The position numbers and the translations under genes were made by a program. The notes under the pieces are model-generated. The model did not search any database. It worked only from the letters and a program-made list of their open reading frames with translations, and was not told where the DNA came from. This document shows, one piece after another, positions 15,105-56,711 of a stretch of DNA of 64,000 bases; within the stretch, counting starts at the first letter, position 1, and each line of letters opens with the position of its first letter. This DNA comes from a virus, in the IMG/VR virus record IMGVR_UViG_3300024581_002882. One strand, given 5' to 3'.

Positions 15105-15107
15105 ACC

Positions 15108-20817: not shown

Positions 20818-20828
20818 AAAAAAGAAAC

Positions 20829-27501: not shown

Positions 27502-27839
27502 TGGAAAATCAAGCTACAAATCAAGGTGCAGAAACTAATGGTGCTGAAGCAGTATCAACTCAAGACACAGCAGGGGTGGTAGAAAATACCAACCCATCTG
27601 AAACCTCATCAAACTTTGAGGAAGGCGGAGAGTTAAAAAAGGGCGGAGAATATAGCCTTGTTTATCTTTTAACCTTTGCTCTTTTGATTTCAGCTTCTGC
27701 ATATAGCATTTACTATCATCGTCAAGCCATGAATAAGCTAATGGATGATGACAACGATGAACTAAAAAGACAAGTTAGAGAAGTGAAAACAAATCTTAAA
27801 AAATTGATGGGAAATAAGTATGAAATTATCTCTAAATAA
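27501..27839 (+). CDS. single-pass membrane protein
   Basis: acidic N-terminus with FEEGG/LKKGG, TM, short coiled coil. Confidence 0.7.
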   Translation: MENQATNQGAETNGAEAVSTQDTAGVVENTNPSETSSNFEEGGELKKGGEYSLVYLLTFALLISASAYSIYYHRQAMNKLMDDDNDELKRQVREVKTNLKKLMGNKYEIISK

Positions 27840-28470
27840 TATTACTTACGGAAATCCAACGCTAAAGCAAAAGGAGTTTTTATCTAAAACTTGCCTTGTT
27901 AGTGATTTATACCCAAAACTTAAAGATTTTCCATGTCCTGAAAATGAAAGCGACAGCACAAAACAGGAATTAAACGAACTAATGGAATTTGCGAAAGACA
28001 TTCAGCTTGATGACAACGAAAAATTCAAGAAAAGATTTGTCTTTTATGATAAAAACTTATTTCAGGCAATTTCAAACTCTTTTAAAACCGAAAAAGCAGA
28101 TATAGACCAACTAATTAAAGATATTGATGAGGATATAACCCCGTTAATTGTTAGGCTTAAATACAACTATCAAAGACCAAGACCTTATCAACTTGCACAA
28201 TATTACAAGCTAAAATTGTTTCCGTTTAGTTCAACATCAGCACATTCACCATCTTATCCGAGTGGACATACGATACAGGCTTATGTTATGCTTACTGTAA
28301 TTGGTAATCTAATACCTGAATTTTACGAAAAAGCAAAAAAAATGATTGAAGATGTGGCATATAGTAGATGCTATATAGGTGTACACTATCCCACAGATAA
28401 TGACTTTGCTTATCAAGTAGCCCAAGAAATACTAAAACACCCTGATTTTGCAAAAAAATATGGAATATGA
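27820..28470 (+). CDS. PAP2-superfamily phosphatase / haloperoxidase-like protein
   Basis: KYNYQRPRP, YPSGH and SRCYIGVHYPTD, the three canonical PAP2 motifs. Confidence 0.88.
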   Translation: MKLSLNNITYGNPTLKQKEFLSKTCLVSDLYPKLKDFPCPENESDSTKQELNELMEFAKDIQLDDNEKFKKRFVFYDKNLFQAISNSFKTEKADIDQLIKDIDEDITPLIVRLKYNYQRPRPYQLAQYYKLKLFPFSSTSAHSPSYPSGHTIQAYVMLTVIGNLIPEFYEKAKKMIEDVAYSRCYIGVHYPTDNDFAYQVAQEILKHPDFAKKYGI

Positions 28471-28864: not shown

Positions 28865-29444
28865 TTTATCAAAGACACAGTATCAAAATCTATTTAAAGA
28901 GTTTGCTTACTTTACCAAAGATTATGGCATGAAGCCATTACTTTATCAGCTTTATGTTTTAAATAATTCAAGAGAAAACTTTGACACGAAAGGTGTTGAA
29001 GATGAGTTACTTATGTTAGAACTAAGCAAATCATTTCAGAATTATGGAGTTGAATTTACCACACTTTTTTTTCAAACAAATAAAACTAAAATGTTTAACT
29101 TTGAATCAGAAAGTAACTCGGCATTAAACGAAAAGGTTTTTGAAATTGTTTGTAGAGTTTTTAAAACAACAAAAGATGCTATTCTTGAAAAGTTTGACAG
29201 AGATGGAATACGGGTTTACGCAAGTGGAAGTTTGTTTAAATTGTTTATAGATACTTGCGGTTATAGTGTGGATGAGGTTGTTTCTTTAACAGGGAAGCCT
29301 AAAAGCATTATTAGTCGCCATAAAAACATTATAACAAATTTGGATTACAAACATATACATGACAAAAAAGTTGTTGTGAAATTTATAAACGCTAAAAAAC
29401 AATTAATTAAATATATATTAGATGAGTACCGACAAGAAAACTAA
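28848..29444 (+). CDS. hypothetical protein, possible C-terminal HTH
   Basis: SVDEVVSLTGKPKSIISRH helix-turn-helix-like pattern. Confidence 0.4.
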   Translation: MTQVSNLSKTQYQNLFKEFAYFTKDYGMKPLLYQLYVLNNSRENFDTKGVEDELLMLELSKSFQNYGVEFTTLFFQTNKTKMFNFESESNSALNEKVFEIVCRVFKTTKDAILEKFDRDGIRVYASGSLFKLFIDTCGYSVDEVVSLTGKPKSIISRHKNIITNLDYKHIHDKKVVVKFINAKKQLIKYILDEYRQEN

Positions 29445-30411
29445 TTCAGACGTAGAAGAAGTAGAATTTGAAGAAGTAAATTCTATAGATTCAGACCCTT
29501 TATTTTCTCCCTTTGACGAGCCTGTCAAAGAAAGGGAATACACCAAGCCAAATATAGATACCTCACAGATTGAGGGGGAGTTGGAAGAACCAACATTTAC
29601 ACCGCCAAGCTTTTCAGACTTTGAAGATGAAGAAGTTGAAGAAAAACCTTTTAATCCAAGCTACAATGAGTTAGGTAAAAAGGAAAAGAAGATGGGTGCT
29701 GAAATGATTGCTGATGTTGTCATTGATGGATATTCTCGCTTAAAAAAGGGAATGGGTTCACTTTCTTCTATTAGCGAAAACAAATTAGAAAGAGAATTTG
29801 CAGAGGGCAATATAAACCCAAACATTCAATTGCCAATTGATGAACATGGAAATACTGCATCAATTAGAGAATTTGTAAAAGAGTTTAACGAAACAGGCAA
29901 AGAAGCTTTTGACACCCCTGAAGATTTCAAAGAAAAAGTAAAACCGCCTCTTGTTCGTGTTTTTGAAAAACGTGGAGTAGGCATGACAGATGAACAGCTA
30001 CTTTTGTACTATTTTGGTACTGACTTTGCAACAGCAGGTGTTACAGCTTTTGGTCTTAAAAAATCAGCAGATGGTATTTTGAAACAATTAAGAGAGCAAA
30101 CAGACTTAATGCGTTCTCCAATGACACCACCACCTGCACCTAAAAAAGAACAAACACAGGCATCAACAGATGTTTCTGAAAATGAAACAGAATTTGAAGA
30201 ACCTGAAGAAGTTTTTGAGGTTCAGCCCGATATAGTTGCACCTAAAAAGCAAAGCAATTCTAACTTCACAAGTGATGCTGAAGTTCCAAGCAATATGCCT
30301 GAATTTGGAGACCCAAGCACACTAAAAGAGATTGAAAAAATTGCATCTAAAGAAGCCAACTCTAACCCTAAGCCAAAAGGTAAAAGAGGGCGACCAAGAA
30401 AAAATAAATAA
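29422..30411 (+). CDS. acidic, Pro-rich protein upstream of the packaging ATPase
   Basis: 329 aa, central weakly hydrophobic helix, basic tail KPKGKRGRPRK. Confidence 0.65.
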   Translation: MSTDKKTNSDVEEVEFEEVNSIDSDPLFSPFDEPVKEREYTKPNIDTSQIEGELEEPTFTPPSFSDFEDEEVEEKPFNPSYNELGKKEKKMGAEMIADVVIDGYSRLKKGMGSLSSISENKLEREFAEGNINPNIQLPIDEHGNTASIREFVKEFNETGKEAFDTPEDFKEKVKPPLVRVFEKRGVGMTDEQLLLYYFGTDFATAGVTAFGLKKSADGILKQLREQTDLMRSPMTPPPAPKKEQTQASTDVSENETEFEEPEEVFEVQPDIVAPKKQSNSNFTSDAEVPSNMPEFGDPSTLKEIEKIASKEANSNPKPKGKRGRPRKNK

Positions 30412-30423: not shown

Positions 30424-30588
30424 ATGGCTAATAAAAAACATGAGTATATATCAGATATAACTTCTATGGATTTTATATTCTTAAGAACTATAACAAAATC
30501 AGATGATTGCATAACTTTTAATGCAATTACATTAGATAATCAGGAGTTTTACGGAGAAGAAACTTCTATAAAATATGAAACAAAATGA
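30424..30588 (+). CDS. 54-aa hypothetical protein
   Basis: read by eye; ATGA overlap with the ATPase start. Confidence 0.45.
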   Translation: MANKKHEYISDITSMDFIFLRTITKSDDCITFNAITLDNQEFYGEETSIKYETK

Positions 30589-31397
30589 GAGAACCAAAAT
30601 TAGGAGTAGCAGTAGGTAAAAAGGGTGTTGGAAAAACATACACAACTAATCAGGTTATTGATAGTTACGTTAAGGGAAATCCCCAAAAAGGTGTTAAACC
30701 AAGAAGGGCTTTAATTCTTGATGTGAACGATGAATTTGAGCATATTAAAGCGTTAAGCCTTAAAGACGTAATGAAGTTTTCAGTACACCCAACTATTGAG
30801 GCGAGAAGAATAAGACCTTTTATGGAAGATGGTCAAAGAATGACAATAAGGGAAATTCAAGAAACACTTTTTGCTATTCTTAAAGATTACAGGGGTGGGC
30901 TTTTATTAATTGAGGACATAAATAGATATATTTCTGACCAATTACCAAACGATGTTGTAGGTGCAATATGCACAAACAGACACGCTGATACAGACATAAT
31001 TCTTCACTTTCAATCTATTGGTAGGGTAACAACTAAAATTTGGCAAAACTTAAATTGGTTGCGTTTTCACAAAAACACAGATAGTGTTGATAGACATAAA
31101 CATAAGTTTGAAGATAAGTTTGAATATCTTAAAATTGCTGAAATTTTAGTAAACCATAAATACTATAATGGAGATGAAAGATATTACCTATATGTAGATA
31201 TAGATAGTGAAAAGATTATGGGAAATGTAAGCAAAAAAGATTTAGACTTTGCTATTGAAGAATACATTTCAAAATACTACAAAAAAATCGTAACACCCTT
31301 GCTTAACCAAATGGGTATGGATGGAAAGAAAAAATATACACCCGAAAAGGCGATAAAAGAGATAAAAAGTAAGATTTATAAGAATTTTACACGATAA
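30585..31397 (+). CDS. FtsK/HerA-superfamily (A32/P9-like) genome-packaging ATPase
   Basis: VAVGKKGVGKT (Walker A), ALILDVNDEF, LLLIED (Walker B), TNRHADTDIILHFQS (RH...Q motif); about 270 aa; adjacent to the capsid candidate. Confidence 0.75.
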   Translation: MREPKLGVAVGKKGVGKTYTTNQVIDSYVKGNPQKGVKPRRALILDVNDEFEHIKALSLKDVMKFSVHPTIEARRIRPFMEDGQRMTIREIQETLFAILKDYRGGLLLIEDINRYISDQLPNDVVGAICTNRHADTDIILHFQSIGRVTTKIWQNLNWLRFHKNTDSVDRHKHKFEDKFEYLKIAEILVNHKYYNGDERYYLYVDIDSEKIMGNVSKKDLDFAIEEYISKYYKKIVTPLLNQMGMDGKKKYTPEKAIKEIKSKIYKNFTR

Positions 31398-31463
31398 ATG
31401 CGATAATCGTCAATTATTGCAGATATTTTTATTCTTTGCAATAAAAATTATTTTAAAACACAA

Positions 31464-31471
31464 TATATTTG
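31464..31471 (+). promoter_or_regulatory. -7 promoter box for the capsid transcript
   Basis: TATATTTG. Confidence 0.6.
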
Positions 31472-31507
31472 AAGCGTAAATGGTTCTGTAACCGTTTGCG
31501 TTTTTTT
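31472..31507 (+). terminator. intrinsic terminator-like hairpin after the ATPase
   Basis: AAGCGTAAATGGTT-CTGT-AACCGTTTGCGTTT (14-bp stem with G-U pairs) plus T tract. Confidence 0.6.
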
Positions 31508-31533
31508 ATTTATTAACTTTTAATCATTCTGTA

Positions 31534-31662
31534 ATGAATACCAAAGTGCTTTTAGAGTTTGGAAAGCAAGTTTTAACTGTCGCTGTTGGAGTTGCTGTGT
31601 ATAACGCAGTAAAACCAATGCTCGATAAGGCTAAACTTTCTGCACCAAGTTCAGACGAATAG
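31534..31662 (+). CDS. 42-aa membrane protein co-transcribed with the capsid gene
   Basis: MNTKVLLEFGKQVLTVAVGVAVYNAVKPMLDKAKLSAPSSDE; read by eye. Confidence 0.65.
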   Translation: MNTKVLLEFGKQVLTVAVGVAVYNAVKPMLDKAKLSAPSSDE

Positions 31663-31710
31663 TCAAACAAATTTCAAATTATTTATTAAACATTTAAAAA
31701 TTTATTTATC

Positions 31711-32400
31711 ATGTCAAATGTACGCAGATATTTAGCAAACGCACAGAGAATGGCTAACGAATCTTTCTCTAATGCCGATGGTTTCATTGATGATGATTTG
31801 TCTTTCACAGGCGATGACTTTTTCAATGCTCAAGGTGGAGGGGCTTCAGCACCTACATCACAGCCATACATCGTAACAGTAACATCTACTTCAGGTAGTG
31901 CTGTTTCAGATTTCGAAGTACTCGGTTCTTACGAGTACATTAACAACGCAGGGTTCACAGCAGGTGGCGACCTTGTAATCGGTTCTATCACTATTTCAAG
32001 TGGTATTGCAGGTATTACATATCGTGAAATGTTGTATCAGTTTATGAACAACCCTTATAGCGTAGGACTTACTTATGTACAGTCAGCTACAGCTAACCAA
32101 ATTTTGGAGACAATTTCAGTTAACACGAGAGATGCTAACGGTAACGAGGCTCAAAAAACACTTGTGCCAACAATCGACCCGTATCAGCAACAATCTACAG
32201 TATTGGCTATGAAATATGCTTACCGAATTGATGGTTTCACAAAACTTATCATTCGTCAAGTATTAGCCAACGCTACTGTTAAATTGTACTTCTACCCATC
32301 TGACAACATTAATCTTGCTCGTGGACTTGCAGGACAAAATGTTTCTCGTCAGTACGGAAATCCCGGCATTGTAAAAGCACAAACCATCAAATTATCATAA
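31711..32400 (+). CDS. candidate major capsid protein (single vertical jelly-roll type) with acidic N-terminal propeptide
   Basis: next to the packaging ATPase; own promoter and terminator; visibly enriched TTC/TAC/AAC/ATC codons; alternating beta-strand pattern; paralogue at 52937. Confidence 0.6.
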   Translation: MSNVRRYLANAQRMANESFSNADGFIDDDLSFTGDDFFNAQGGGASAPTSQPYIVTVTSTSGSAVSDFEVLGSYEYINNAGFTAGGDLVIGSITISSGIAGITYREMLYQFMNNPYSVGLTYVQSATANQILETISVNTRDANGNEAQKTLVPTIDPYQQQSTVLAMKYAYRIDGFTKLIIRQVLANATVKLYFYPSDNINLARGLAGQNVSRQYGNPGIVKAQTIKLS

Positions 32401-32438
32401 TTAGAGGTTAGTGTTTAACAGAGTTGGATAACTTAACT

Positions 32439-32474
32439 AAAGGGGCGTTTGGTTTTTCCAAATTCCCCTTTTTT
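32439..32474 (+). terminator. intrinsic terminator after the capsid gene
   Basis: AAGGGG-CG-TTTGG/loop/CCAAA-TT-CCCCTT then T tract. Confidence 0.75.
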
Positions 32475-32490
32475 ACTTAAAAATTAACAC

Positions 32491-32874
32491 ATGGATGTAT
32501 ATAACTACATAGCAAATACAAACCCCCACAAGGCTCAAGATATTATAAACAGCTTTGGGTATAAGGTTGTAGATAAAAAGAACATGGGTGGTAACTTAAA
32601 ATCACTTGTTGCTAAAGAAGGCGAACCTGCCCTTAAAATGGTTTTAGAAAATCATCCTGACAAAGAAGTTATTTTAGAACTATATAGCCCAACAGCAGAT
32701 GGCAAACACTATTCTTGTGGCTGTAATGAATGTAATGAAAAAAGAATGGTAGAAAAATTCTTAAACGCAAGTGGAAAAGAAAGTTCAGAAGCTAAAAAAG
32801 TGGACAGCAACTTTTCTTTAGTTTTTCTTGCAGGGGTTTTAGTTTTATCATTTGCAATATTATCAAAAAATTAA
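32491..32874 (+). CDS. C-terminally anchored membrane protein (NAxG family)
   Basis: helical N-domain, FLNASG, TM, KN tail. Confidence 0.7.
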   Translation: MDVYNYIANTNPHKAQDIINSFGYKVVDKKNMGGNLKSLVAKEGEPALKMVLENHPDKEVILELYSPTADGKHYSCGCNECNEKRMVEKFLNASGKESSEAKKVDSNFSLVFLAGVLVLSFAILSKN

Positions 32875-33479: not shown

Positions 33480-33480
33480 A

Positions 33481-34131: not shown

Positions 34132-34365
34132 ATGAGTGTAAAAAGCCCAAAAGAAATAGTTGCCGAAGTGTCAGGACTTACTGATGACAAAAAAAGGAAA
34201 GCGTTTATGCTGAAAGCACAGTCAAGCGTTCATGGTGCTTTTTGGGGTGGTGCTTTTGGTCTTTTATTTGCATTTTATAAAAGTAAAAACAAATATGTTA
34301 GCACTCTAATAGGTGCAGGTGTTGGTGCTTTAGTATCTAATATTTTAACAGTAGAAAAAAAATAA
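34132..34365 (+). CDS. 2-TM glycine-zipper membrane protein
   Basis: GAFWGGAFGLL; LIGAGVGAL. Confidence 0.7.
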   Translation: MSVKSPKEIVAEVSGLTDDKKRKAFMLKAQSSVHGAFWGGAFGLLFAFYKSKNKYVSTLIGAGVGALVSNILTVEKK

Positions 34366-35080: not shown

Positions 35081-35209
35081 ATGAAAACTATGAAAATGGA
35101 TGTTAAGTCTTTAGTAGGTGTAGCTGTATCAATTGCAGTTCTTTACGCAACAGTTTATTACGCAGGTCGTGGGTGGAAGCGTTCACAGTCAGGCGAAAAA
35201 CTTGTATAA
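35081..35209 (+). CDS. 42-aa membrane protein
   Basis: MKTMKMDVKSLVGVAVSIAVLYATVYYAGRGWKRSQSGEKLV; read by eye. Confidence 0.6.
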   Translation: MKTMKMDVKSLVGVAVSIAVLYATVYYAGRGWKRSQSGEKLV

Positions 35210-35335: not shown

Positions 35336-35599
35336 ATGGAGAAATCAGCTAATCAGCTTTGGAGAGAAAGCGGAACTTCTCTTTCTTTTAAGGATTGGAT
35401 TCAAAGAGAGAAAGATAAAGGAGTACAAATTAAAAATAAACTTCTCGAAGATGTGGTTGGTTCTGTAAAAGAAACTAATCAAAAAGACACAAATACAATA
35501 AAAAGATTTGATTTTGGAGTGCCAAAGTGGGTTATTTACACAGGTGCTTCGGTTTTAACTTTTGCTATTGTATATAAATTATATAAAGCCAAAAAATGA
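35336..35599 (+). CDS. C-terminally anchored membrane protein
   Basis: TM plus YKLYKAKK. Confidence 0.7.
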   Translation: MEKSANQLWRESGTSLSFKDWIQREKDKGVQIKNKLLEDVVGSVKETNQKDTNTIKRFDFGVPKWVIYTGASVLTFAIVYKLYKAKK

Positions 35600-36384
35600 A
35601 CCTAAGAGTAACAACGAGATATGAAGAACTTTCGTTGGCTGTTTACGTTCAAACCCTTACTCCTTGTAAAATAAGAATTAAGGTTTTTGATGCGGAACAA
35701 CCAAAAACTGTTTTTACAGACAGGTATAAAACCGTAAAAGGAAGCGAAGTTTTTTATGTTCGTATGCCTTTAAGTTCAAATCAGGTTATTGTAAGCGTTT
35801 ACAATGAAGCTGTAGGCAACAGACGTAAAGGAGAGGACAGTAGCTTTACCATAACACAGGTAAAGAAATTGCCTTTAGAAAAAAGAACAGATGTGGGGGA
35901 TATTCGTGATTATACGGTTTCCTCTTTTGTGGATTTTGCACAAAGGTTTTCTTTTAACGCATCTTATTTAGATGCTGATAAAACCTATCAGAGTTCAAGT
36001 GGTGAATTTCTTATTGAGTATTTACCATACATAACAAGTTCTAAAACGGGTCAAAAATTAAAAACACCTGCCCGTATTTCTAAGGTAAATGGTAGGATTC
36101 AGGTTTCAAAAGAAGCCTTTGATAACTATACTGTGCCTATGCGTATGGCTATTTTGCTACATGAGTTTTCTCATTTTTATCTAAATGATAATATGGATGA
36201 CGAAGTAGAGGCTGACCTTAATGGGCTTTTAATTTATTTAGGGTTGGGTTATCCTCGAATTGAGGGTTATCAAGCGTTTTTAGAAGTGTTTCAGGACACA
36301 CCTTCGCAACAAAATAAAAACCGTTATGATATAATTAATAAGTTCATAAGGGATTTTGAAAAGAATAAAATGGTAATGAACTAA
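35596..36384 (+). CDS. zincin metalloprotease (HExxH plus downstream E) with N-terminal beta domain
   Basis: AILLHEFSHF...DEVEADLNG, an M48/gluzincin-like arrangement. Confidence 0.8.
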   Translation: MNLRVTTRYEELSLAVYVQTLTPCKIRIKVFDAEQPKTVFTDRYKTVKGSEVFYVRMPLSSNQVIVSVYNEAVGNRRKGEDSSFTITQVKKLPLEKRTDVGDIRDYTVSSFVDFAQRFSFNASYLDADKTYQSSSGEFLIEYLPYITSSKTGQKLKTPARISKVNGRIQVSKEAFDNYTVPMRMAILLHEFSHFYLNDNMDDEVEADLNGLLIYLGLGYPRIEGYQAFLEVFQDTPSQQNKNRYDIINKFIRDFEKNKMVMN

Positions 36385-42852: not shown

Positions 42853-45800
42853 ATGGCTATACAGACAAGTTGTTCAAATGATATTTGTGTTGTTACAGGT
42901 AATGAATTAAAATTATTCATTGATTCCTGTACAAATCTTATTTCAGTAAAAGATTCTAATGGTAATGTTCAAACCTTAGATAATTTTATTGTAGATGAAG
43001 GAATTACAAGGGTAATTGCAGGAGAGTGCTTAACAGGTGGTGGTACATCCTCAACTGTTACTCTTAACCATGCTTGTACTTCAACTCTTTCGGGAACTTA
43101 TGGACAGCCACTTTTACAAGATGGATGTTATATAAAGTCTATTACTGTTGATGAGTTTGGTCATCTAACAGAAGTTACAACGGATAACTTTAATACACAA
43201 TATTTGGGCATAAATGCCTGTGCTGTTGATTCAGCACTTTTAAATAATCAGGCAGGTTCATATTATTTAGACTTTTGTAATTTCACAAATGTTCCTGACT
43301 TAGGAGATATTTGTGGGGTTTGTGCAGGTGATGGATTAGGTGGCGGTGGAGACACAGGTGTAGTAACATTGTGTAACACAGATAAGGGTAGTTCTCAAAA
43401 TATAATAAAAAATATTTGTGGAAACTTAGGTGGATATACTTCTTCGACAAATAATGATTTATTTTGCATTAAAGGTGTTGGTACTGTAAGCACCTCTATT
43501 ACAGGAAATACACTTACTATTTCATCATCAAATACTGTAAACGATTCTTTAATTACTTTGTCAACGAGTAGTGGTGTTGGCGGTGGTGGTTCTTTTACCC
43601 TAAATCAAACAGGTAGTTGCACAATCTCATTTTCTAACACAGACAAGGGGTCTGACCAAAGTATATTTAAAAACTTTTGTGTAAGCGGAGAGGGTACTGT
43701 TACAGCAAACAATAATAATGATACGCTAAGTTTTATAAAGGGTACGGGGATTGATTTAACAACAAATCCAACGAACCAAACGATTACGATTTCATCTACA
43801 ATTTCATCCGCAAATAACTGTCAAATACAGATAACAGGTGGAGATGGTTTAAGCGGAAGTGCCACTTTTACTTTAAATCAAAATAGTAATGGCTCTTTTA
43901 CGATAACAAACTCTGATAAAGGCTCAAGTCAAACTTTTTTCCAAAGTATTGAAGTAATAGGCTCTTGCACAGTAACAGCAGACCAAAATAACGACACGCT
44001 TTGTTTGTCAGCAGGTACAGGAATCACCCTTACTTCTGACAACACCCAAGACTTAATTACAATTGGAACAACAGCAACTTCTTGTACAGGAACGGTAACA
44101 AGTGTTGGTGCAACTACAGGTACAACAGGAACTGATTTTAATATTTCAGGAAGCCCTGTTACAACAAACGGAACAATAACTTTTAATTTACCTTCTGCAA
44201 GTGCAACCAATAGAGGTGCTTTAACAAGTGCAGATTGGTCAACTTTTAACAGTAAAACTTCATGTGTAGGAACAGTAACGAGTGTAGGTGTAACAACAGG
44301 AGAAACGGGAACAGATGTAAGTGTTTCAGGAAGCCCAATTACAACAAGCGGTGTAATAACACTAAACATACCGATTGCAAGTGCAACAAACACAGGAAAG
44401 CTATCCTCGACTGATTGGTCAGACTTTAACAATAAAGTAGATGACGTAACAGCAGGTACAGGTATTTCTGTAAGCGGTACAGATACTATTGAGGTTACAA
44501 ATACAGACTTAGGTTCTTCGCAATGTATATTTAAAAACATTGCTGTTTCGGGGCAAAACACTATTGTCGCTGATACAAATAATGATACTTTGACTTTCGC
44601 AGGTTCAGGTATAACAATTGAAACTGATGACACCACAGACACAGTTACTTTTACAGTTACAGATGCAGGTGGAACAGTAACAAGCGTTGGATTAGATACG
44701 GGTACAACAGGAACAGATATAAATGTTTCAGGAAGCCCCGTAACAACAAGTGGTAACATAACATTAAATATACCCGATGCAAGTGCTTCTTCAAGAGGTG
44801 CTTTAACGAGTGCAGACTTCAACACATTTAGTAATAAAACTTCATGTGTAGGAACTGTATTTAGTGTAGGGGCTACAGGTGGCGAAGGAATTGTTGTAAC
44901 AAATAGCCCAATTACCACAAGTGGTAGCTTTGGAATTTCAGTTTGTTTAAATGAATTAACAACATCTATAGACAATGGAGATGGATGTTTCTTTGCTGTT
45001 GTAGATGCTTCGGGTGTTCAAAACAAACTAACTAAATCCAATATAAATATATCAGGATTTAACAACGATGAAAACTTTACAACTTGTACGGGTACTGTTT
45101 CAAGTGTTGCGGTAAGCGGTGGAACAGGAATATCTGTTTCAGGAAGCCCAATTACAGGTTCAGGAACAATAACAGTTACTAATTCTGATAGGGGTTCTTC
45201 GCAATGTATATTTAAAAATGTGGCTGTTTCAGGTCAAACTACAATAGTTGCCGATAGTAACAACGACACCCTTACACTTGCTAATGGAAGCAATATTTCT
45301 ATTACAACCAACGCAACAAGTGATACGGTAACAATTTCTACTTCAGCTACAACCTGTACGGGTACAATAACAGGTGTAACAGCAGGAACAGGACTTTCAG
45401 GTGGTGGAACATCGGGAAGTGTAACACTAACTAATGCCGACAAAGGTTCAGACCAAAATATATTTAAAACTATATGTGTTTCGGGTCAAAATGATATTGT
45501 TGCAGATAGTAATAATGACATATTAACATTTGTTGCGGGTACAGGAATTACAATTACAACAGATGATACAACTGATACTATAACAATAAATTCTCCTGAT
45601 GCAGGTGGAACGGTAACAGAGGTTTGTGCAACTACAGGTACAACGGGAACAGACTTTAACGTTTCAGGAAGCCCTATAACTACAAGTGGCACACTAACTT
45701 TTAATTTACCTACAGCAAGTGCTACAAACACAGGTAAACTTTCATCAACAGATTGGAGTACATTTAATTCAAAAACAGATTGCACAGGTACTGTTACAAG

Positions 45801-48504
45801 TGTTTCGGGTGGAACGGGGCTAACAGGTACTGTAACAACTTCAGGAAGCATAAGTGTAGATTATTCAGGTGCAGATAATATAATTGATAGTGCTACAGAT
45901 TGCACAACTATTGCTGTTGCAGGTGGTGATAGAATTATGACTACAAATAATTCCACAAGCATTGTGGAGTTTCATAAGGTTTCAGATTTACCATTCACAA
46001 GCTGTACGGGTAGTGTAACAAGCGTTGGTGCTACCACAGGAACTTCAGGAACAGACTTTAATATTTCGGGTAGCCCAATTACAGGAAGTGGCACAATTAC
46101 ATTTAATCTACCTACTGCAAGTGCTATTAACACAGGGAAACTATCAAGTACAGATTGGAGTACATTTAACTCAAAAACCACTTGTACAGGTACAGTTACT
46201 TCGGTTGCTGTAACAGGTGGTGTTGGAATTGATGTTTCGGGAAGCCCGATTACAGGGAGTGGCACGATTGACTTAACAATTGACCTAAACGAATTAACTA
46301 CATCTACAAGTGATGCAGATGGAGACTTTTTTGCTGTTGTAGATTCACTTGGCAATCAAAATAAAATAACAAAAGCTTGTGTAAATCTTTCAGGGTTTAA
46401 TAACAATTGCGGATGGACAGATTGTGTTGGAACTATTACGGGGGTTACAGCAAGTACAGGTCTTTCAGGTGGCGGTTCTTCAGGTTCTGTAACACTTACA
46501 AATACCGACAGAGGTTCTTCACAAAACATATTTAAAAACGTAGCGGTTTCGGGTCAATCTACAATTGTTGCTGACAGTAATAATGATACACTTACGCTTG
46601 TTGGTTCAGGTTTATCTATTACAACAGATGCCACAACAGACACAGTTACTTTTACAGTAACAGATGCAGGTGGAACAGTTACAGAGGTGTGTGGTGCTGT
46701 TGGTACTTCAGGCACAGATTTTAATGTTTCGGGTAGTCCGATTACAACAAATGGAACATTAACATTTAATTTACCTGTAGCAAGTGCAACTAATACAGGA
46801 AAGTTATCTAATACTGATTGGAGTACATTTAATTCTAAAACTACTTGCGTTGGTACAATTACAGGTGTAACAGCAGGTGCAGGTATGTCGGGTGGTGGAA
46901 CTTCAGGAAATGTAACTTTAACAAATGCTGATAGAGGTTCATCGCAAAATATATTTAAAAATGTTGCAGTTTCAGGTCAAAGCACAATTGTAGCTGATAA
47001 CAATAACGACACACTAACTTTAGCAAATGGTAGTAATATAACAATTACAACAAATGCTACAACTGATACAGTTACAATTTCTTCTTCAGCTACAACCTGT
47101 ACGGGTACTGTAACGGGTACAGGTACTGCAAATATTTTACCCAAGTGGTCATCAACTACAGCACTTACAAATTCATGTATTGGCGATGATGGTACTTTAG
47201 TATGTATAAACGCTAATTTAAGAACGGGTGCTACTGATAATGTTTCAACGGGTGGATTAAGTTTTGCAGGTGGAGAAATATCTTGTGCAACAGGTTGTCA
47301 AAGTATTGCGTATGGTTTTTGTAATAACTCAAGTGGTGGTGCATCTGCTACTTTTGGTGCAATAAATACAACTTCAGGGGCAAACTCTATGATTGGTGGC
47401 GGTGCTAATAACTGTATTTCGGGACTTGAATCATTTATTGGTGGTGGAAATTCTAATAATGTTTCAGGGTGGTATTCATCGGCATTTGGTTTAGGTAATG
47501 TGGGTTTTGGCGGTGGAACACTTACGAGTGGTTCAAATAATACCAATAATGGAGAAAATTCAATTATTCACAGTTTAAACTCTGCAACAGTTAATGCTGC
47601 TTGTAGAAGTGCTATTATTGGTGGAATTGGAAATACAGCTTGGGCGAAAGAATCTTTTATAAGCGGGTTTGCAAACCAAGTTTCTACAAATGCTTTTGGT
47701 GGAAATGTTATTTTTGGGGGTGCAAATGTAATATGTCATGGTCATAATAGTGCAGTTTTTGGTGGCTCAAACTGTGTGATACTTCAATGTGCAGGTTCAA
47801 GTTCTTGTAATGGTTATGCTACGATTCTTGGTAAGTGTAATAGAACTTGTGGTAATGCTTATTACTCATTAACAGGTGGTGAACTTTCTACAAACTTCTC
47901 ATGTGCAGGTATTTCTTTTGGGTGTGGTGCTACAGCGAGTACAGGAATTGCACAATTCAGTTTCGGCAGGGGAACTGCAAACCCAAATAACGGAACTACT
48001 GCAAATATTGAAGGCTCTTTTGTTGTTGGTAGATATAACGTAGAAAGCACAACAGCTTGTCATCTTTTTGCTGTAGGTACGGGTACTTCAGATTCTTCAA
48101 GATATACCACACTTAATGTAGATGCTAATTGTAGAGTAGGAATACGCACATTAACGCCAACAACAGAACTTCAGGTAGTTGGAACAACAACTACAACTAC
48201 ATTAGTTGAAACTTCTGCATTTAGATTTAAAGAAAATATTTCCCCAATAGATAGTCAAATTGAAATAATAAAACAACTTAGACCTGTTGAGTTTGATTGG
48301 AAAGACACCAAAAAACACGATTTCGGACTTATTGCAGAAGAAGTAGAAAATCTTTTACCAACTTTTGTGGAACATGACGATGATGGCGAATTGATTGGTG
48401 TTAAATACTCTAAATTAACAGCTATTTTAATTAAGGGTATGCAGGAACAACAAAAAGAAATAGAATACCTTAAAAAAGAATTGCAAATTTTAAAAAATAA
48501 CTAA
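42853..48504 (+). CDS. 1883-aa modular Cys-rich fibre with C-terminal S74-type intramolecular chaperone
   Basis: T/G/S repeat modules; SAFRFKENI...LRPVEFDWK...GLIAEEV...VKYSKLTAILIKGMQE. Confidence 0.88.
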   Translation: MAIQTSCSNDICVVTGNELKLFIDSCTNLISVKDSNGNVQTLDNFIVDEGITRVIAGECLTGGGTSSTVTLNHACTSTLSGTYGQPLLQDGCYIKSITVDEFGHLTEVTTDNFNTQYLGINACAVDSALLNNQAGSYYLDFCNFTNVPDLGDICGVCAGDGLGGGGDTGVVTLCNTDKGSSQNIIKNICGNLGGYTSSTNNDLFCIKGVGTVSTSITGNTLTISSSNTVNDSLITLSTSSGVGGGGSFTLNQTGSCTISFSNTDKGSDQSIFKNFCVSGEGTVTANNNNDTLSFIKGTGIDLTTNPTNQTITISSTISSANNCQIQITGGDGLSGSATFTLNQNSNGSFTITNSDKGSSQTFFQSIEVIGSCTVTADQNNDTLCLSAGTGITLTSDNTQDLITIGTTATSCTGTVTSVGATTGTTGTDFNISGSPVTTNGTITFNLPSASATNRGALTSADWSTFNSKTSCVGTVTSVGVTTGETGTDVSVSGSPITTSGVITLNIPIASATNTGKLSSTDWSDFNNKVDDVTAGTGISVSGTDTIEVTNTDLGSSQCIFKNIAVSGQNTIVADTNNDTLTFAGSGITIETDDTTDTVTFTVTDAGGTVTSVGLDTGTTGTDINVSGSPVTTSGNITLNIPDASASSRGALTSADFNTFSNKTSCVGTVFSVGATGGEGIVVTNSPITTSGSFGISVCLNELTTSIDNGDGCFFAVVDASGVQNKLTKSNINISGFNNDENFTTCTGTVSSVAVSGGTGISVSGSPITGSGTITVTNSDRGSSQCIFKNVAVSGQTTIVADSNNDTLTLANGSNISITTNATSDTVTISTSATTCTGTITGVTAGTGLSGGGTSGSVTLTNADKGSDQNIFKTICVSGQNDIVADSNNDILTFVAGTGITITTDDTTDTITINSPDAGGTVTEVCATTGTTGTDFNVSGSPITTSGTLTFNLPTASATNTGKLSSTDWSTFNSKTDCTGTVTSVSGGTGLTGTVTTSGSISVDYSGADNIIDSATDCTTIAVAGGDRIMTTNNSTSIVEFHKVSDLPFTSCTGSVTSVGATTGTSGTDFNISGSPITGSGTITFNLPTASAINTGKLSSTDWSTFNSKTTCTGTVTSVAVTGGVGIDVSGSPITGSGTIDLTIDLNELTTSTSDADGDFFAVVDSLGNQNKITKACVNLSGFNNNCGWTDCVGTITGVTASTGLSGGGSSGSVTLTNTDRGSSQNIFKNVAVSGQSTIVADSNNDTLTLVGSGLSITTDATTDTVTFTVTDAGGTVTEVCGAVGTSGTDFNVSGSPITTNGTLTFNLPVASATNTGKLSNTDWSTFNSKTTCVGTITGVTAGAGMSGGGTSGNVTLTNADRGSSQNIFKNVAVSGQSTIVADNNNDTLTLANGSNITITTNATTDTVTISSSATTCTGTVTGTGTANILPKWSSTTALTNSCIGDDGTLVCINANLRTGATDNVSTGGLSFAGGEISCATGCQSIAYGFCNNSSGGASATFGAINTTSGANSMIGGGANNCISGLESFIGGGNSNNVSGWYSSAFGLGNVGFGGGTLTSGSNNTNNGENSIIHSLNSATVNAACRSAIIGGIGNTAWAKESFISGFANQVSTNAFGGNVIFGGANVICHGHNSAVFGGSNCVILQCAGSSSCNGYATILGKCNRTCGNAYYSLTGGELSTNFSCAGISFGCGATASTGIAQFSFGRGTANPNNGTTANIEGSFVVGRYNVESTTACHLFAVGTGTSDSSRYTTLNVDANCRVGIRTLTPTTELQVVGTTTTTTLVETSAFRFKENISPIDSQIEIIKQLRPVEFDWKDTKKHDFGLIAEEVENLLPTFVEHDDDGELIGVKYSKLTAILIKGMQEQQKEIEYLKKELQILKNN
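43370..47110 (+). repeat. interleaved coding repeats in the long fibre (6 A, 8 B and 2 C modules)
   Basis: A = GTVTSVG..TGT.GTD...SGSP.TT.G.IT.N.P.ASAT..G.L...DW..FN.K; B = D(K/R/L)GS.Q.IFK...V.G...I.AD.NND.L; C = LNELTTS...DG.FFAVVD. Confidence 0.85.
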
Positions 48505-48506
48505 TT

Positions 48507-50099
48507 ATGGCTACTTTATCAAGCACACAAATTTGCGGAACTTATACTTCAAAATATACTGTTACAGAGGGAACAGCGTGTACTTTTGTTAAAGCAGATA
48601 ATAGCACCGCCTGTGAAATTTTCGGTTGCTGTTCGGCAATTACAAGGGGTACACAAGGGGCTATATACAACCCTTTAAGAGAATTTTGTTATTATAGTTC
48701 ATCATATAGTCCATCAGGGCTTCTTTTTAATGTAGATGGTTGGTCAGATTTATCAAATATTACCACAAGAAATTATGGTAATTTTGTTGAAGTTTTAGGG
48801 GGTAGTGTAGGAAATTATGTTGTTGGAACAGAGATGATAATGTGGGATGTAAACAACGACAACTACCATAAAATATGCTTCACAGCATGGACACAAGGCG
48901 GTCAAGGTGGTGGATTTACTTATGTAAGAACACCATTAACACTTTCTGACGATAGACTTACCGTATCATCGTTAACTGTTGGCGATGAAGTTGTTTTTCC
49001 TACAGATATTAGTATAAAAGCACAAAATTTTTATTCTTCATGTAGTGGAACAATATGTAATAATGGTGAAATTTCATTAAGTAGCTGTAATCTAAATATA
49101 GGTATTGGTTACAATATTGCTACCTGTGGTTTCAGCACCACAACTCCATTGACAAGACCCGTAAATCAAAATGTTTTTATTGGAAATGCTATTCTTTGTA
49201 GAAATGCAAGTAGTGTTCTAAATTCAATTACTTTTGGAAATGTATTTATTGGGCGTTCTATTGCAAGTTCACTTCCCCAATCTACAGCAACAAATATGTG
49301 TTATAATGTTGGGATAGGTCAATCTGCTCTTTCGTGGTTGGGCTGTTGTTATCAAGGTAATTTTAACACCGCAATAGGAACTAATTCCTCTGCGTTATTA
49401 AAATGTGGATGCCTTAACACATCTATAGGTTATTATTCTTTAAGAGGCAACTGCTTAGGTTCTTGTAATACAGGATTAGGGGCTTGTGCTTTGTGTACTA
49501 CTTCAAGTAATTATAACAACACTACAGGCGTTGGTTATTGTGCTTTAGTTACAGGAAGCAATCAGGTTCAAATTGGAAATTCATCAACAACAACTTACGT
49601 TTACGGAACGGTTCAAAACAGGTCTGATGAAAGAGATAAAACAGAAATAAGAGACACCCTACTCGGATTAAACTTCATAAATTGCCTAAGACCCGTTGAT
49701 TTTAAATGGGATATGAGAGATGATTATTTTTCCGAAGCACCAACAATGCCCGAAATATCTGATGATATGTCAGATGAAGAAATACAGTCAATAAACGCAC
49801 AACATGAGGCTGATTTAGAGCAATGGAAAAATGAAAATAATTTAGGTGTAGTTTCTTCAGATGGCACACACAAACGAAACAGATTTCATCATGGGCTTAT
49901 TGCTCAAGAGGTAAAACAGGTTATTGATGATTTAGGCATAGATTTTGGGGGCTACCAAGACCACAGTATTGCAGATGGAGACAGCACACTAACAATAGGT
50001 TATGATGAACTTATAGCCCCCCTTATAAAGGCTGTTCAGGAATTAAAATCTACAATAGACAATTTAGAAAGCAGAATACAAACTTTAGAATCTAATTAA
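48507..50099 (+). CDS. 530-aa Cys-rich fibre/spike with S74-type chaperone
   Basis: N..IG..AL repeats; RSDERDKTEI...LNFINCLRPVDFKW...HGLIAQEV...IGYDELIAPLIKAVQEL. Confidence 0.88.
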   Translation: MATLSSTQICGTYTSKYTVTEGTACTFVKADNSTACEIFGCCSAITRGTQGAIYNPLREFCYYSSSYSPSGLLFNVDGWSDLSNITTRNYGNFVEVLGGSVGNYVVGTEMIMWDVNNDNYHKICFTAWTQGGQGGGFTYVRTPLTLSDDRLTVSSLTVGDEVVFPTDISIKAQNFYSSCSGTICNNGEISLSSCNLNIGIGYNIATCGFSTTTPLTRPVNQNVFIGNAILCRNASSVLNSITFGNVFIGRSIASSLPQSTATNMCYNVGIGQSALSWLGCCYQGNFNTAIGTNSSALLKCGCLNTSIGYYSLRGNCLGSCNTGLGACALCTTSSNYNNTTGVGYCALVTGSNQVQIGNSSTTTYVYGTVQNRSDERDKTEIRDTLLGLNFINCLRPVDFKWDMRDDYFSEAPTMPEISDDMSDEEIQSINAQHEADLEQWKNENNLGVVSSDGTHKRNRFHHGLIAQEVKQVIDDLGIDFGGYQDHSIADGDSTLTIGYDELIAPLIKAVQELKSTIDNLESRIQTLESN

Positions 50100-52936: not shown

Positions 52937-53461
52937 ATGGCTACACATTCCCCTACATCAACATCTTATCCAAATGGAGTTGTAACAATTGAAAGCGAAG
53001 ATGCTACTACTTACAATTCCATACAGGAATCTGTTGTAGGTTCTCACAACTACAAGATAAATAAAGTTTACCTTAAAACAAACGATGTTTCACAGATTTT
53101 AGAGCCTATAACATTTAGAAAATTCGATTCAAATGGTAACGTACAAGAGGACAAAACAGTTCCTACCGTTGACCCATTTAGCTTTCAGCCATCAATAGAT
53201 ATAGATTTTAAAGGAAAAGAAAATATTTTAGATGGAAGAACCGAAATAATATATAACGTAAAGGCGAATGAAAATGTATATTTTTACCTTGACACAACAG
53301 TTATAGACAATGGTTCTTTATTAGGAGAACAAAAAGGATTTGATAAAGATTTTTTAGAAACATACGACTTTTTTCAAGAGTATGATGACCAAATAGTAAT
53401 TGATTTTAATTATGACCAAGACAGAGTACCTCAATGCACAGACGAAACACCGAGTGATTGA
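52937..53461 (+). CDS. paralogue of the capsid candidate (minor capsid or penton-like)
   Basis: QILEPITFRKFDSNGNVQEDKTVPTVDPFSFQ vs QILETISVNTRDANGNEAQKTLVPTIDPYQQQ; LDGRTEII.NVKAN vs IDGFTKLII.QVLAN. Confidence 0.75.
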   Translation: MATHSPTSTSYPNGVVTIESEDATTYNSIQESVVGSHNYKINKVYLKTNDVSQILEPITFRKFDSNGNVQEDKTVPTVDPFSFQPSIDIDFKGKENILDGRTEIIYNVKANENVYFYLDTTVIDNGSLLGEQKGFDKDFLETYDFFQEYDDQIVIDFNYDQDRVPQCTDETPSD

Positions 53462-54109: not shown

Positions 54110-55594
54110 ATGAGTTACGCAGAAAGCATATCGTTAAAATTAGTGAATAACACTTCTGTTGACCAACCTGTTGGTTTGCTCGGTGGCACATCCTCTACAT
54201 ACGCAAACGCCAATAATACGGTTTTAGTAGAATGGGATTTAGCAACAGAGGACTTTACGGGAACAACCGTTACCTTAGAAACAACTGTACCCGTTACTGT
54301 TGATTTAGCAACACAAAGTGTTAAGGGTGTAGTAGATGCTTTAAACACCACAAACAAGGCTACTTTTACTTATTCAGGAACAATTATTTATGCAACAGCA
54401 CTTTTAGACAATAGCGTTGAAAGTGCCGATATAGTGGTTGGAACAATTACTTCTGTACCTGTTTCTTTAGGTTATTTAGCGGATGGGGTTGGTATTTCAA
54501 GTTTAAGCCCTGCTGAAATGTGGAGAATTTGGCAAAGTTCTACTACAAGAGGTGGTTTAACAGAATACATAAGTTCATCAGATTCAGTAGAGGTTGGCAC
54601 ACAATTTTATCAAAATGAGGAATTAACAAACCCATCAAATCGTATTGATTACTTTTTTCAGGGTATTTCTGCTTCGCCAACAAATATTTTAAAATTTAGT
54701 GGAAGTGGTGGTATTCTTACAGACATTATACCTACAGCAGACTTGCCAACAGATTTTAGCCCAACAGTTTCAGGGTTTACAAACTTTTCGAGTACAAATA
54801 TTTTTTCAGGAAATAATGGTCTTGGTCAGAATTTAATAGCATATAATATTTCTGCAAATGGTAAATATTTATTTGGGATTGATAGTATAAATGCAGTAAT
54901 TTATAGGTTTTCTTTTACAACAGCATGGGATTTTTCTACTTTAAATACAACTTCAGACCAAAATTTTGATATTTTAGCAAGTGTTCCATCAGCAGGAGTA
55001 CAGGCAGGATTTACATTAGACCCCACAGGGCAAAAGTTTTATTTTAATGATAATGGAAATGGCGGATATAGAACCATTTTCCTGTCAACAGCTTGGGATT
55101 TGACAACAGGTACTGTTGGTGCGTTTAGTTCAAATGCCACAAATACTTTCAATAGATTTACTTGGAACGCTAATGGAGATTATATAGTTGGGCTTTTAAC
55201 CGATATTAACATAAGTAATTACAGTACCGCATTTGGAAGATTTAATTTAGCACAATACCAATCAGAACAATTTGAACCAAATATTGCCACATATATCAAC
55301 CCTGTTGGAGTAACAAGCCCTAATTTAAATCAGCTAATCACATCAACTGATGGTTCTAAGTGGTATGTTTTATATAGCGGAGTACAAGGTAGTGATGATG
55401 TTTATCAAATCGTAGAAGTAGATATAAGCGACTATTCAGATATAACAACTATTTCTCAAAATACTGAAAGCACACAATTTAGTAATACTGCTTTTACATC
55501 ACCTGTAGGTTTGTGGTGGAATCAGGATAATACTAAACTTTATGTAATAGAAGGGCAGTCTAACGGTGATATTTATATAGATGAAATAGGATAA
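54110..55594 (+). CDS. spike/receptor-binding protein 1 (conserved N-domain plus beta-propeller)
   Basis: blades ISANGKYLF, LDPTGQKFY, WNANGDYIV, STDGSKWY, WNQDNTKLY; AWD.(S/T)T repeats. Confidence 0.7.
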   Translation: MSYAESISLKLVNNTSVDQPVGLLGGTSSTYANANNTVLVEWDLATEDFTGTTVTLETTVPVTVDLATQSVKGVVDALNTTNKATFTYSGTIIYATALLDNSVESADIVVGTITSVPVSLGYLADGVGISSLSPAEMWRIWQSSTTRGGLTEYISSSDSVEVGTQFYQNEELTNPSNRIDYFFQGISASPTNILKFSGSGGILTDIIPTADLPTDFSPTVSGFTNFSSTNIFSGNNGLGQNLIAYNISANGKYLFGIDSINAVIYRFSFTTAWDFSTLNTTSDQNFDILASVPSAGVQAGFTLDPTGQKFYFNDNGNGGYRTIFLSTAWDLTTGTVGAFSSNATNTFNRFTWNANGDYIVGLLTDINISNYSTAFGRFNLAQYQSEQFEPNIATYINPVGVTSPNLNQLITSTDGSKWYVLYSGVQGSDDVYQIVEVDISDYSDITTISQNTESTQFSNTAFTSPVGLWWNQDNTKLYVIEGQSNGDIYIDEIG

Positions 55595-55595
55595 A

Positions 55596-56711
55596 ATGAG
55601 TTACGCAGAAAGCATATCGTTAAAATTAGTGAATAACACTTCTGTTGACCAACCTATTGGTTTGCTTGGGGGTACATCTTCTACATACGCAAACGCCAAT
55701 AATACGGTTTTAGTACAATGGGATTTAGCAACAGAAACGTTTGCGGGTAATCAGGTTACGCTAAATACCACAACACCTATAACAAGGGATTTGTTGGGGC
55801 AAAACATATCAGGTCTTGTTAAAACCCTAAACACCATGAATGTGGCTACTTTTACGTTTGAGGGTACAACGGTCTATGCAAGTGCCTTGTTAGACAATAG
55901 TGTTGAAACAGCCGATATGATTATTGATTTGGCAGATGGTACTTGGAATATTTCAGGGTATTCTTTATCTCAAACAGACCCTTATGCTTCAGGTCAAATT
56001 CAAGATTGGTTTATTTCTCATGATGGAAATTGGCTATTTATATCAAATGTTTCTGTAAATCAACTTCAAAAGTTCCCAATAACAACCGCTTGGGATATGA
56101 GTACGCTTAGTGGGTTTGCTTCACAAGTTAATACGGGTATTCTCTCAAGATTTACATTTGCAGATGAGGGTAACTATTTGTATCAACAAATAGGTGCTAC
56201 ATTGCAACGATTCCCTTTAGTTGCACCTTATGATATTAGCACTACCATACAAGACCAAAGTGGCTCTGTTACAAGTGGTACAATGGAATTTAGCCCTGAT
56301 GGAACTAAAGTGTTTTCAACAGGCGGAACTGCGGTTCTTCAGTATAGCTTATCAGCACCATTTGATGTTACAGCTTCATCATTTATAAATACAACTGATG
56401 TTTTAACAATGGGAATAACGCTACCTGCAAACGCCTTTTTAAGAAGCTTAACATTTAGCCCTGATGGAACTAAATTGATGATTTTTGCATCAAAAACCTC
56501 ATCAGCTTTTGTTTCATTTACATATCAATGTACTTGCTCAACACCATTTGACCCATCAACAGCAACGTATGATGGTGTATCAGTTGATACAACAGGTACT
56601 TCTCCAAATTATGGCGGACATTTTAAAGCCGATGGAAGTTTATTTGTAAACATCTATCTTCAGGGAAGTATTGGAAGTTCAATTATTAAAGAATTTAGAA
56701 CATTCAGCTAA
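55596..56711 (+). CDS. spike/receptor-binding protein 2 (same N-domain plus a different beta-propeller)
   Basis: first 60 nt identical to 54110; blades ISHDGNWLF, FSPDGTKVF, FSPDGTKLM. Confidence 0.7.
   Translation: MSYAESISLKLVNNTSVDQPIGLLGGTSSTYANANNTVLVQWDLATETFAGNQVTLNTTTPITRDLLGQNISGLVKTLNTMNVATFTFEGTTVYASALLDNSVETADMIIDLADGTWNISGYSLSQTDPYASGQIQDWFISHDGNWLFISNVSVNQLQKFPITTAWDMSTLSGFASQVNTGILSRFTFADEGNYLYQQIGATLQRFPLVAPYDISTTIQDQSGSVTSGTMEFSPDGTKVFSTGGTAVLQYSLSAPFDVTASSFINTTDVLTMGITLPANAFLRSLTFSPDGTKLMIFASKTSSAFVSFTYQCTCSTPFDPSTATYDGVSVDTTGTSPNYGGHFKADGSLFVNIYLQGSIGSSIIKEFRTFS

Follow-up and report, generated by a model that had tools for sequence, protein, structure and literature searches.

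The window analyzed here, a 64,000-nt stretch of the IMG/VR virus record IMGVR_UViG_3300024581_002882 (all positions are in window numbering), carries a gene for a small ATPase of the packaging type and, shortly downstream, a gene for a 229-amino-acid (229-aa) protein with a jelly-roll fold. We think it likely that the window belongs to an undescribed lineage of large tailless viruses that have a linear genome, a membrane, a packaging ATPase resembling B204, and a coat protein with a single jelly-roll. From its alignment with a longer relative, the window is best explained as about the left 64 kb of a linear double-stranded DNA virus genome of ~80 kb. A large tailless membrane virus with an FtsK-type ATPase and a jelly-roll coat is what the original prediction, an earlier reading of this DNA, had proposed. 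It had named as contrary outcomes a 229-aa protein of another fold, an ATPase that groups with nonviral HerA/VirB4 proteins, and tailed-phage genes beyond the window; we encountered none of these, and the proposal is supported.

A predicted packaging ATPase of the B204 type

Both open reading frames (ORFs) on which the proposal was built were present, at 30585-31397 and 31711-32400. In the first, the Walker A and B motifs and the RH...Q motif that had been read from the translation could be located and are conserved. Walker A (GKKGVGKT) occupies residues 11 to 18 and Walker B (LLLIED) residues 106 to 111, and both, together with R132-H133 ... H141-x-Q143-S144, are invariant in an alignment of 39 homologues with 58-79% identity. 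Searches by sequence gave subthreshold Pfam matches only (AAA_22 and Zot), and a PDB sequence search with single proteins and the ATPase profile returned only a chance P-loop match to ClpB. Among the PHROGs, the protein matched phrog_2666 (E 4.5e-7), which carries the name "terminase large subunit" because RefSeq gives that name to the P23-77 packaging ATPase. The HerA-type domain PF01935 is present in some homologues. A profile comparison with the packaging ATPase of P23-77, ORF13, found similarity (hhalign probability, 81.6%).

An AlphaFold2 model of the ATPase, built on the 39-sequence alignment, had a mean predicted local distance difference test score (pLDDT) of 86.5. When this model was searched against the PDB with Foldseek, the top 15 rows were all the B204 packaging nucleoside triphosphatase of Sulfolobus turreted icosahedral viruses STIV2 and STIV (E 3.9e-10 to 1.2e-7; target TM scores, 0.63-0.72), followed by Zot (3.5e-6), HerA (1e-5), and FtsK (1e-4); VirB4, TrwB, and TcpA were also among the structural neighbors. 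The rank of B204 ahead of HerA and VirB4 points to a minimal viral-type FtsK-HerA ATPase, with packaging as its predicted function, and not to a cellular HerA/VirB4 protein. At 270 aa, it is of minimal single-domain size, within the ~200-270 aa of the B204/A32-like class, and its gene adjoins the candidate capsid gene. The B204 structures (PDB 4KFR-4KFU and 4R2H/I) and the A32-like clade are thus the closest in fold, with an identity of only 16-18% and no match at the sequence level. The modeled protein has a helical C-terminal extension of ~55 residues that B204 lacks, and STIV further differs from the window in its double jelly-roll capsid protein and archaeal host.

A single jelly-roll protein encoded downstream of the ATPase

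The 229-aa protein had been described as beta-rich and jelly-roll-like, and its AlphaFold2 model, based on 97 diverse sequences (mean pLDDT, 88; ~97 in the core), bears this out. The model has a helix at residues 2 to 17, a disordered linker at 18 to 48, and a sandwich of at least eight strands at 49 to 229, with a helix after the C strand region. Every structural match was a jelly-roll, and all were weak. They included picornavirus VP3, comovirus and nepovirus coat proteins, satellite tobacco mosaic virus, and birnavirus VP2; among phages, the PR772/PRD1 P31 penton, the PM2 P1 N terminus, and the major capsid protein (MCP) of FLiP; the second barrels of PBCV-1 and faustovirus; and, outside capsids, nucleoplasmin, TNF/C1q, and carbohydrate-binding modules. 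P23-77 VP16/VP17 were not among the fold matches listed. Pfam, PHROG, and PDB sequence searches gave no match, and Foldseek searches of BFVD and the ESM Atlas returned only weak generic beta-sandwich rows.

Of the gene's own signals, the proposed terminator is borne out by terminator-like hairpins on both sides, one upstream (31471-31504 plus a T-run) and one downstream (AAGGGG...CCCCTTTTTT, ~32441-32476). The proposed promoter was not found in a sigma-70 scan, a scan that is ill-suited to Bacteroidota and that showed no enrichment of promoters. The Bacteroidota -7 motif TAnnTTTG was not enriched overall either (49 and 43 copies on the two strands versus ~54 expected), and some copies lie 31-41 nt upstream of starts. 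The visibly optimized codons claimed for the gene did not hold up: its effective number of codons (Nc) of 43.4 ranks 52 of 73 and does not single it out. Its GC content at third codon positions is 0.31, above the 0.12-0.24 of the other genes listed alongside.

Evidence for a probable coat protein role

Within the lineage, conservation is highest for the 229-aa protein. Across 36 IMG/VR relatives its identity is 70-95%, that of the ATPase is 52-93%, and the other genes in the comparison range over 29-89%; a comparison of all window ORFs gave the same pattern, with the 229-aa protein highest. In 35 of the 35 related loci with upstream sequence, the ATPase gene lies 0.3-3 kb upstream of the jelly-roll gene, and the order is a PAP2 phosphatase, a 329-aa acidic protein, the ATPase, a variable spacer of that length, the jelly-roll gene, and a tail-anchored membrane protein.

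A three-copy model of the 229-aa core scored 0.81, and the best of three controls scored 0.00. Of the proteins used for calibration, 20 of 30 with structures solved as pairs of one chain reached that mark, as did 1 of 23 solved as single chains; these counts apply only roughly here, where a custom alignment and three copies were used. The runs agreed in at least 83% of contacts, with a partner pLDDT of at least 78. The predicted interface is head-to-tail: a face formed by residues 73-78, 112-113, 140-145, and 174-176 meets a face formed by residues 51-53 and 97-114. Because the first copy uses only one of these faces and the last copy only the other, two faces are left free, and we infer that the model may represent an open arc from a ring with more than three subunits.

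Contigs from RNA libraries of three studies span just the 229-aa gene (31500-32609, 31560-32445, and 31704-32363), a weak hint toward a major capsid role. High RNA depth in the bins at 25.3-26.0 kb and 34.7-35.3 kb was ignored because it came from short low-complexity pieces, and stretches lacking RNA contigs are not evidence of silence. On the strength of its conservation, the gene order, the parallel with P23-77 described below, the oligomer model, and, weakly, the RNA contigs, the 229-aa protein is probably the MCP.

Some proteins of the jelly-roll family contain the domain twice in tandem. P0130 (397 aa; L059:10001-11194) has halves that are 34% identical and lies among glycosyltransferase genes on a 107-kb contig of the same lineage. 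P0181 (411 aa; L060:10001-11236) has halves that are 35% identical and lies on a 71.5-kb contig, 2.5 kb from a 288-aa ATPase homologue (L060:13738-14604; 32% identity, E 1e-33), with an IS605 TnpB gene between the two. If these are coat proteins, they may represent independent single-to-double jelly-roll fusions within one family.

Relatives of the window and the search for tailed-phage genes

The closest relative, G004, is a 79,409-bp IMG/VR contig whose ATPase and jelly-roll protein are 93% and 95% identical to those of the window. Window positions 1-63810 align colinearly with G004 1259-63250, which puts the start of the window ~1.3 kb inside the left end of G004 and leaves ~16 kb of G004 beyond the right end of the window. 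The relatives are catalogued as viral genomes and come from aquatic samples, among them marine, estuarine, and salt-marsh ones. Clustered at 90% identity, the 229-aa family forms 1660 clusters in one database; at 50%, it forms 562 in another. Its members lie on contigs up to ~100 kb. The statement that no described isolate matches proved correct for the 50,697 GenBank phage records that we searched by tblastn, none of which matched either the ATPase or the 229-aa protein, and full-text literature searches found no description of the lineage. The MCP queries of a 2018 census of double jelly-roll phages would have missed it.

The original prediction had recognized no terminase, portal, HK97 capsid, or tail tube, and Pfam and PHROG searches of 71 window ORFs and the large ones likewise detected none. 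No head, packaging, or tail family was matched in these searches except phrog_2666, the ATPase family, and no double jelly-roll capsid protein was recognized, in that no window ORF matched a Pfam or PHROG capsid family by hidden Markov model (HMM). What these searches did return was genes of replication and recombination (Phg_2220_C, RecT, PD-(D/E)XK, and RusA) and an amidase endolysin, along with polyvalent ART and RelA/SpoT proteins, a MoxR-type AAA ATPase, glycosyltransferases, and a PAS histidine kinase accompanied by a receiver. No tRNA genes were found.

Nothing points to tailed-phage genes outside the window either. Seven Pfam models were used, four for terminase (PF03237, PF03354, PF17289, and PF04466), two for portal (PF04860 and PF05133), and one for HK97 capsid (PF05065), and each matched in the positive-control genomes. 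Terminase_6N, TerL_ATPase, Terminase_6C, Terminase_3, Phage_portal, and SPP1_portal were absent from five relatives of 77-102 kb, and Phage_capsid (PF05065), which was searched in four of the five and in a Sediminibacterium metagenome-assembled genome, was absent from those four. A 132-kb relative, G006:C9, is binned in that metagenome-assembled genome, whose sole HK97-capsid match lies on another contig. In the 16 kb of G004 beyond the window, Pfam searches of the ten largest ORFs gave sulfotransferase, glycosyltransferase, methyltransferase, and HD-domain genes and no tailed-phage gene. Ten large ORFs of the 132-kb relative, mostly in its end regions, gave only HNH, methylase, exonuclease, and sulfotransferase matches. 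A PHROG scan of the large ORFs of another relative, G001, found no head family, but it was swamped by methyltransferase families and is weak evidence of absence. G001 (101 kb; L037-L042) carries about seven DNA methyltransferase genes and a phrog_192 DNA polymerase exonuclease-subunit-like gene, all absent from the window.

Genome ends, probable host, and other genes

G006:C9 (132,486 bp; uniform GC content of 30-36%) runs colinear with the window. Its two ends carry inverted terminal repeats (ITRs), consisting of four tandem copies of the 11-mer GGGAATTTCGT and their complement (L051:1-100 and L057:12300-12486), and the contig therefore looks like a complete linear genome. Similar repeat-rich ends occur on one side of two other relatives, at the right end of G001 and the left end of G004. 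Neither of these has terminal repeats, and their ends are therefore probably incomplete. A Shine-Dalgarno-like motif precedes only 7 of 103 window ORFs, a low share typical of Bacteroidota, and relatives were binned with Flavobacteriaceae and Sediminibacterium. From these features, the host is quite likely a member of Bacteroidota.

Two further regions lie to the left of the predicted virion genes. The first, at 7345-9646, holds a two-component set that consists of a PAS histidine kinase, a receiver standing alone, and a membrane protein. The set is missing from G004, and parts of it lie at another place in G001; this patchy presence marks it as an accessory cassette. At 11836-23531 lies a block of large proteins: a 707-aa protein with ART-PolyVal, a MoxR-type AAA_5 ATPase, its 526-aa partner, a 643-aa protein, and a 900-aa protein with RelA/SpoT. 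Relatives conserve only the N-terminal or central parts of these proteins, a pattern to be expected if they are modular polyvalent proteins delivered together with the DNA.

Comparison with known tailless viruses

There is a parallel in gene order with the Helvetiavirae SH1, P23-77, and HHIV-2 (Halopanivirales: Sphaerolipoviridae, Simuloviridae, and Matshushitaviridae), which share with the window a small FtsK-HerA ATPase, a small ORF, one or more single jelly-roll genes, and small membrane-protein genes. The P23-77 map runs ORF13 (the ATPase), ORF14, VP15, VP16/VP17, and small membrane proteins, and the order in the window is parallel, with a 42-aa ORF at the place of the small ORF14. The two adjacent capsid genes of the Halopanivirales were not found in the window: the ORFs that follow the jelly-roll gene encode membrane proteins, and its paralogue is truncated and lies 20 kb away. 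On this count the window falls outside that order. The lineage also differs in genome size (77-132 kb, versus 17 kb for P23-77), in habitat and host (aquatic and probably Bacteroidota, versus Thermus or haloarchaea), and in its large fibers, polyvalent proteins, and two-component system. The SH1 genome is about 31 kb, and those of SH1 and HHIV-2 are linear with ITRs.

PRD1-type Tectiviridae and PM2 are likewise tailless. They combine a packaging ATPase with numerous small membrane proteins, and their vertex spikes sit on a penton of the single jelly-roll type; here, these features are predicted from genes. It is the penton P31 of the former and the N terminus of P1 of the latter that the 229-aa model weakly resembles. 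No double jelly-roll capsid protein like theirs was recognized here, and the genomes of the window lineage are 5-9 times larger. Tectiviruses have linear genomes with ITRs. Of the tectiviral combination of linear ITR-bounded genome and protein-primed PolB, ITRs were found on the 132-kb relative, and the polymerase (PF03175) was not found in five relatives, which keeps the lineage out of the Tectiviridae. By analogy, we read the module as functionally like those of the SH1/P23-77- and PRD1/PM2-type tailless membrane viruses.

Other genes of the predicted virion block

The features of the block are listed in Table 1. Upstream of the ATPase, the PAP2-family phosphatase gene keeps its position relative to its neighbors in nearly all 36 related loci, and we can only guess that its product modifies virion or host lipids. 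The 329-aa acidic protein is 29-84% conserved in nearly all of these loci, and an Atlas look-up of it returned only unnamed viral clusters; a scaffold or DNA-end protein would be our guess. The 42-aa ORF falls inside RNA contigs that also cover the jelly-roll gene.

Six single-helix ORFs directly follow the jelly-roll gene, and a Kyte-Doolittle scan found ~21 ORFs with one hydrophobic helix, often C-terminal, between 23.5 and 54.1 kb. With these proteins and the conserved PAP2 phosphatase as sequence proxies, the particle probably has an internal membrane. Farther downstream, a 262-aa protein shows 56-89% conservation in those related loci that extend to its position; it has no Pfam match, and its possible peptidase function comes from an Atlas lead only (DUF4344/M48 peptidases at 0.80-0.85).

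The two fiber proteins match PHROG tail-fiber and tail-spike families mainly through their C-terminal parts. When the 530-aa protein was searched by tblastn, the matches to SPO1-like and many other phages covered only residues 245-529, a region annotated in two phage records as an intramolecular-chaperone auto-processing domain. Lying mainly in these C-terminal, chaperone-type parts, the matches are not evidence of a tail. The 1883-aa fiber gene contains many diverged internal repeats (window 44000-47100), which match the 41-50 kb region of G004 many times over, with a nucleotide identity of 66-82%. A 223-aa protein encoded on the minus strand (62039-62710) shares its N-terminal ~45 residues with the N terminus of the large fiber (42853-42990) in relatives, at 48-53% identity, which suggests an attachment adaptor common to the two. 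The ORF at 50482-51354 was considered as a capsid protein and rejected, since the Atlas gives a GT9-like glycosyltransferase.

The 174-aa protein is a paralogue of the 229-aa protein (BLASTP E 1e-10; hhalign probability 96%, E 4e-9) and is conserved in G001, G004, and G006:C9. It covers residues 92-197 only and so lacks the first strands. Its gene lies just upstream of those for two spike-like proteins that are 74% identical over residues 1-110 (E 5e-50) and have dissimilar, repeat-rich C-terminal parts. An hhalign comparison of the jelly-roll family with the spike N-terminal domain detected no similarity. The arrangement of the paralogue and two spikes fits a putative vertex complex.

Table 1. 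Predicted virion genes and features of the window
Feature	Position	Strand	Basis
PAP2-family lipid phosphatase, conserved, upstream of ATPase	27820..28470	+	Pfam PAP2, E 3.6e-12
Conserved 329-aa acidic protein directly upstream of ATPase	29422..30411	+	Conservation; no Pfam family
270-aa predicted packaging ATPase, B204/A32-like (FtsK-HerA) type	30585..31397	+	Motifs, fold
ATPase motifs	Walker A 30615-30638; Walker B 30900-30917; R132/H133...Q143 sensor region 30978-31013	+	
42-aa small hydrophobic ORF between ATPase and jelly-roll gene	31534..31662	+	Translation
229-aa single jelly-roll protein, candidate major capsid protein	31711..32400	+	AlphaFold2, fold searches, conservation
Parts of the 229-aa gene	N-terminal helix 31714-31761; disordered linker 31762-31854; jelly-roll core 31855-32397	+	AlphaFold2
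Six small proteins, mostly one C-terminal membrane helix	32491-32874, 32880-33479, 33439-34125, 34132-34365, 34371-34775, 35081-35209	+	Kyte-Doolittle, translations
Conserved 262-aa protein, possible metallopeptidase (candidate maturation protease)	35596..36384	+	Conservation, Atlas lead
Two fiber/spike proteins, 1883 aa and 530 aa, intramolecular-chaperone type C-terminal domain	42853..50099	+	PHROG, tblastn
174-aa truncated paralogue of jelly-roll protein, candidate vertex/penton protein	52937..53461	+	BLASTP, hhalign
Two spike-like proteins, 494 aa and 371 aa, common N-terminal domain	54110..56711	+	BLASTP

Alternative explanations

Several observations weigh against a tailless virus with the 229-aa protein as its coat. 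P23-77 has two coat genes after the ATPase and the window one, and the jelly-roll family has an hhalign probability of <1% with VP16/VP17, a comparison made with a single-sequence template. The Nc value does not mark the 229-aa gene as highly expressed, and RNA-library contigs give no measure of how strongly a gene is expressed and could include DNA. The fiber genes carry tail-fiber-type domains, automatic taxonomy labels related clusters Uroviricota, and one relative was binned with Pelagibacter. Finally, the absence of tailed-phage genes rests on HMMs, with two proteins folded, which leaves room for a very divergent HK97 or double jelly-roll protein among the conserved ORFs that lack annotation.

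The virus could be tailless with the 229-aa protein as a minor, vertex (penton), or cement protein, the true MCP being an unrecognized double jelly-roll or novel fold encoded elsewhere. We consider this unlikely, because the 229-aa protein is the best conserved of the lineage and is encoded directly after the ATPase in essentially all loci that reach far enough, between two terminator-like hairpins; moreover, the truncated paralogue beside the spike genes fits a penton role better, and no other ORF has a Pfam or PHROG capsid family. Alternatively, the window could come from a tailed phage (Caudoviricetes) whose HK97 capsid, portal, and terminase are too divergent for HMMs, with the jelly-roll protein a decoration or fiber part and the ATPase in another role. 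Of all phage genes, the one for the terminase large subunit is usually the most readily detected. The four terminase (TerL), two portal, and one HK97 models were nonetheless silent in the five near-complete relatives (for the HK97 model, as detailed above) with the controls positive, the PHROG head and packaging families gave none but the ATPase itself, and no conserved unannotated ORF has a terminase- or portal-like size and conservation. A B204-like ATPase with a jelly-roll gene and a block of membrane proteins is also not a tailed-phage arrangement, and we hold this origin to be quite improbable.

A linear genome with inverted terminal repeats and many membrane proteins would also be compatible with a nonviral mobile element, plasmid-like or conjugative, with the ATPase serving to transfer DNA or protein and the jelly-roll protein acting as an adhesin or other surface protein. 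Polyvalent ART and RelA/SpoT proteins are found on conjugative elements as well, and VirB4, TrwB, and TcpA are among the structural neighbors of the ATPase. Against such an element stand an endolysin (amidase plus peptidoglycan-binding domain), RusA, RecT, an exonuclease, and the chaperone-domain fibers, together with the cataloguing of the relatives as viral genomes. Relaxase, full-length VirB4, and coupling protein were absent from all Pfam scans made, and the ATPase is of minimal viral size with B204 as its best match. We regard a mobile element as highly improbable, and a tailless membrane virus with a single jelly-roll coat is the reading that we carry forward.

Predicted particle and implications

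In the particle that we envisage for this tailless virus, the 229-aa protein would form ring-shaped capsomers through its head-to-tail interface, and these would build the outer shell. The vertices would consist of the truncated 174-aa paralogue, the adjacent spikes with their common N-terminal domain, and the large fibers. Under the shell, the ~21 small, mostly tail-anchored membrane proteins would reside in a host-derived lipid vesicle, and the 270-aa B204/A32-like ATPase would sit at one vertex and pump the linear genome into the preformed particle.

A more far-reaching proposal, which we consider somewhat unlikely, is that these 77-132-kb linear membrane viruses form a lineage of realm or kingdom level. 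Their shell would then be made of one vertical single jelly-roll protein in hexameric rings, the long-hypothesized state that preceded the double jelly-roll, and some relatives would have fused the domains independently (P0130, and P0181 beside its ATPase).

Known bacterial viruses that combine an FtsK-HerA packaging ATPase with a jelly-roll capsid have genomes of ~10-31 kb, and large prokaryotic virus genomes are assumed to be tailed. If the reading of a tailless membrane virus is true, the genome would be several times larger than that of any described bacterial virus of this type, and the size range of tailless phages would be extended several-fold. It would also mean that metagenomic taxonomy misfiles such viruses, as pipelines label this lineage Uroviricota. 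Nontailed particles dominate electron microscope counts in seawater; the lineage would offer candidates for these abundant particles and, given its 562 clusters, could account for part of them. With its naturally tandem-fused members, the single jelly-roll family described here offers a testable case for the origin of double jelly-roll capsid proteins.

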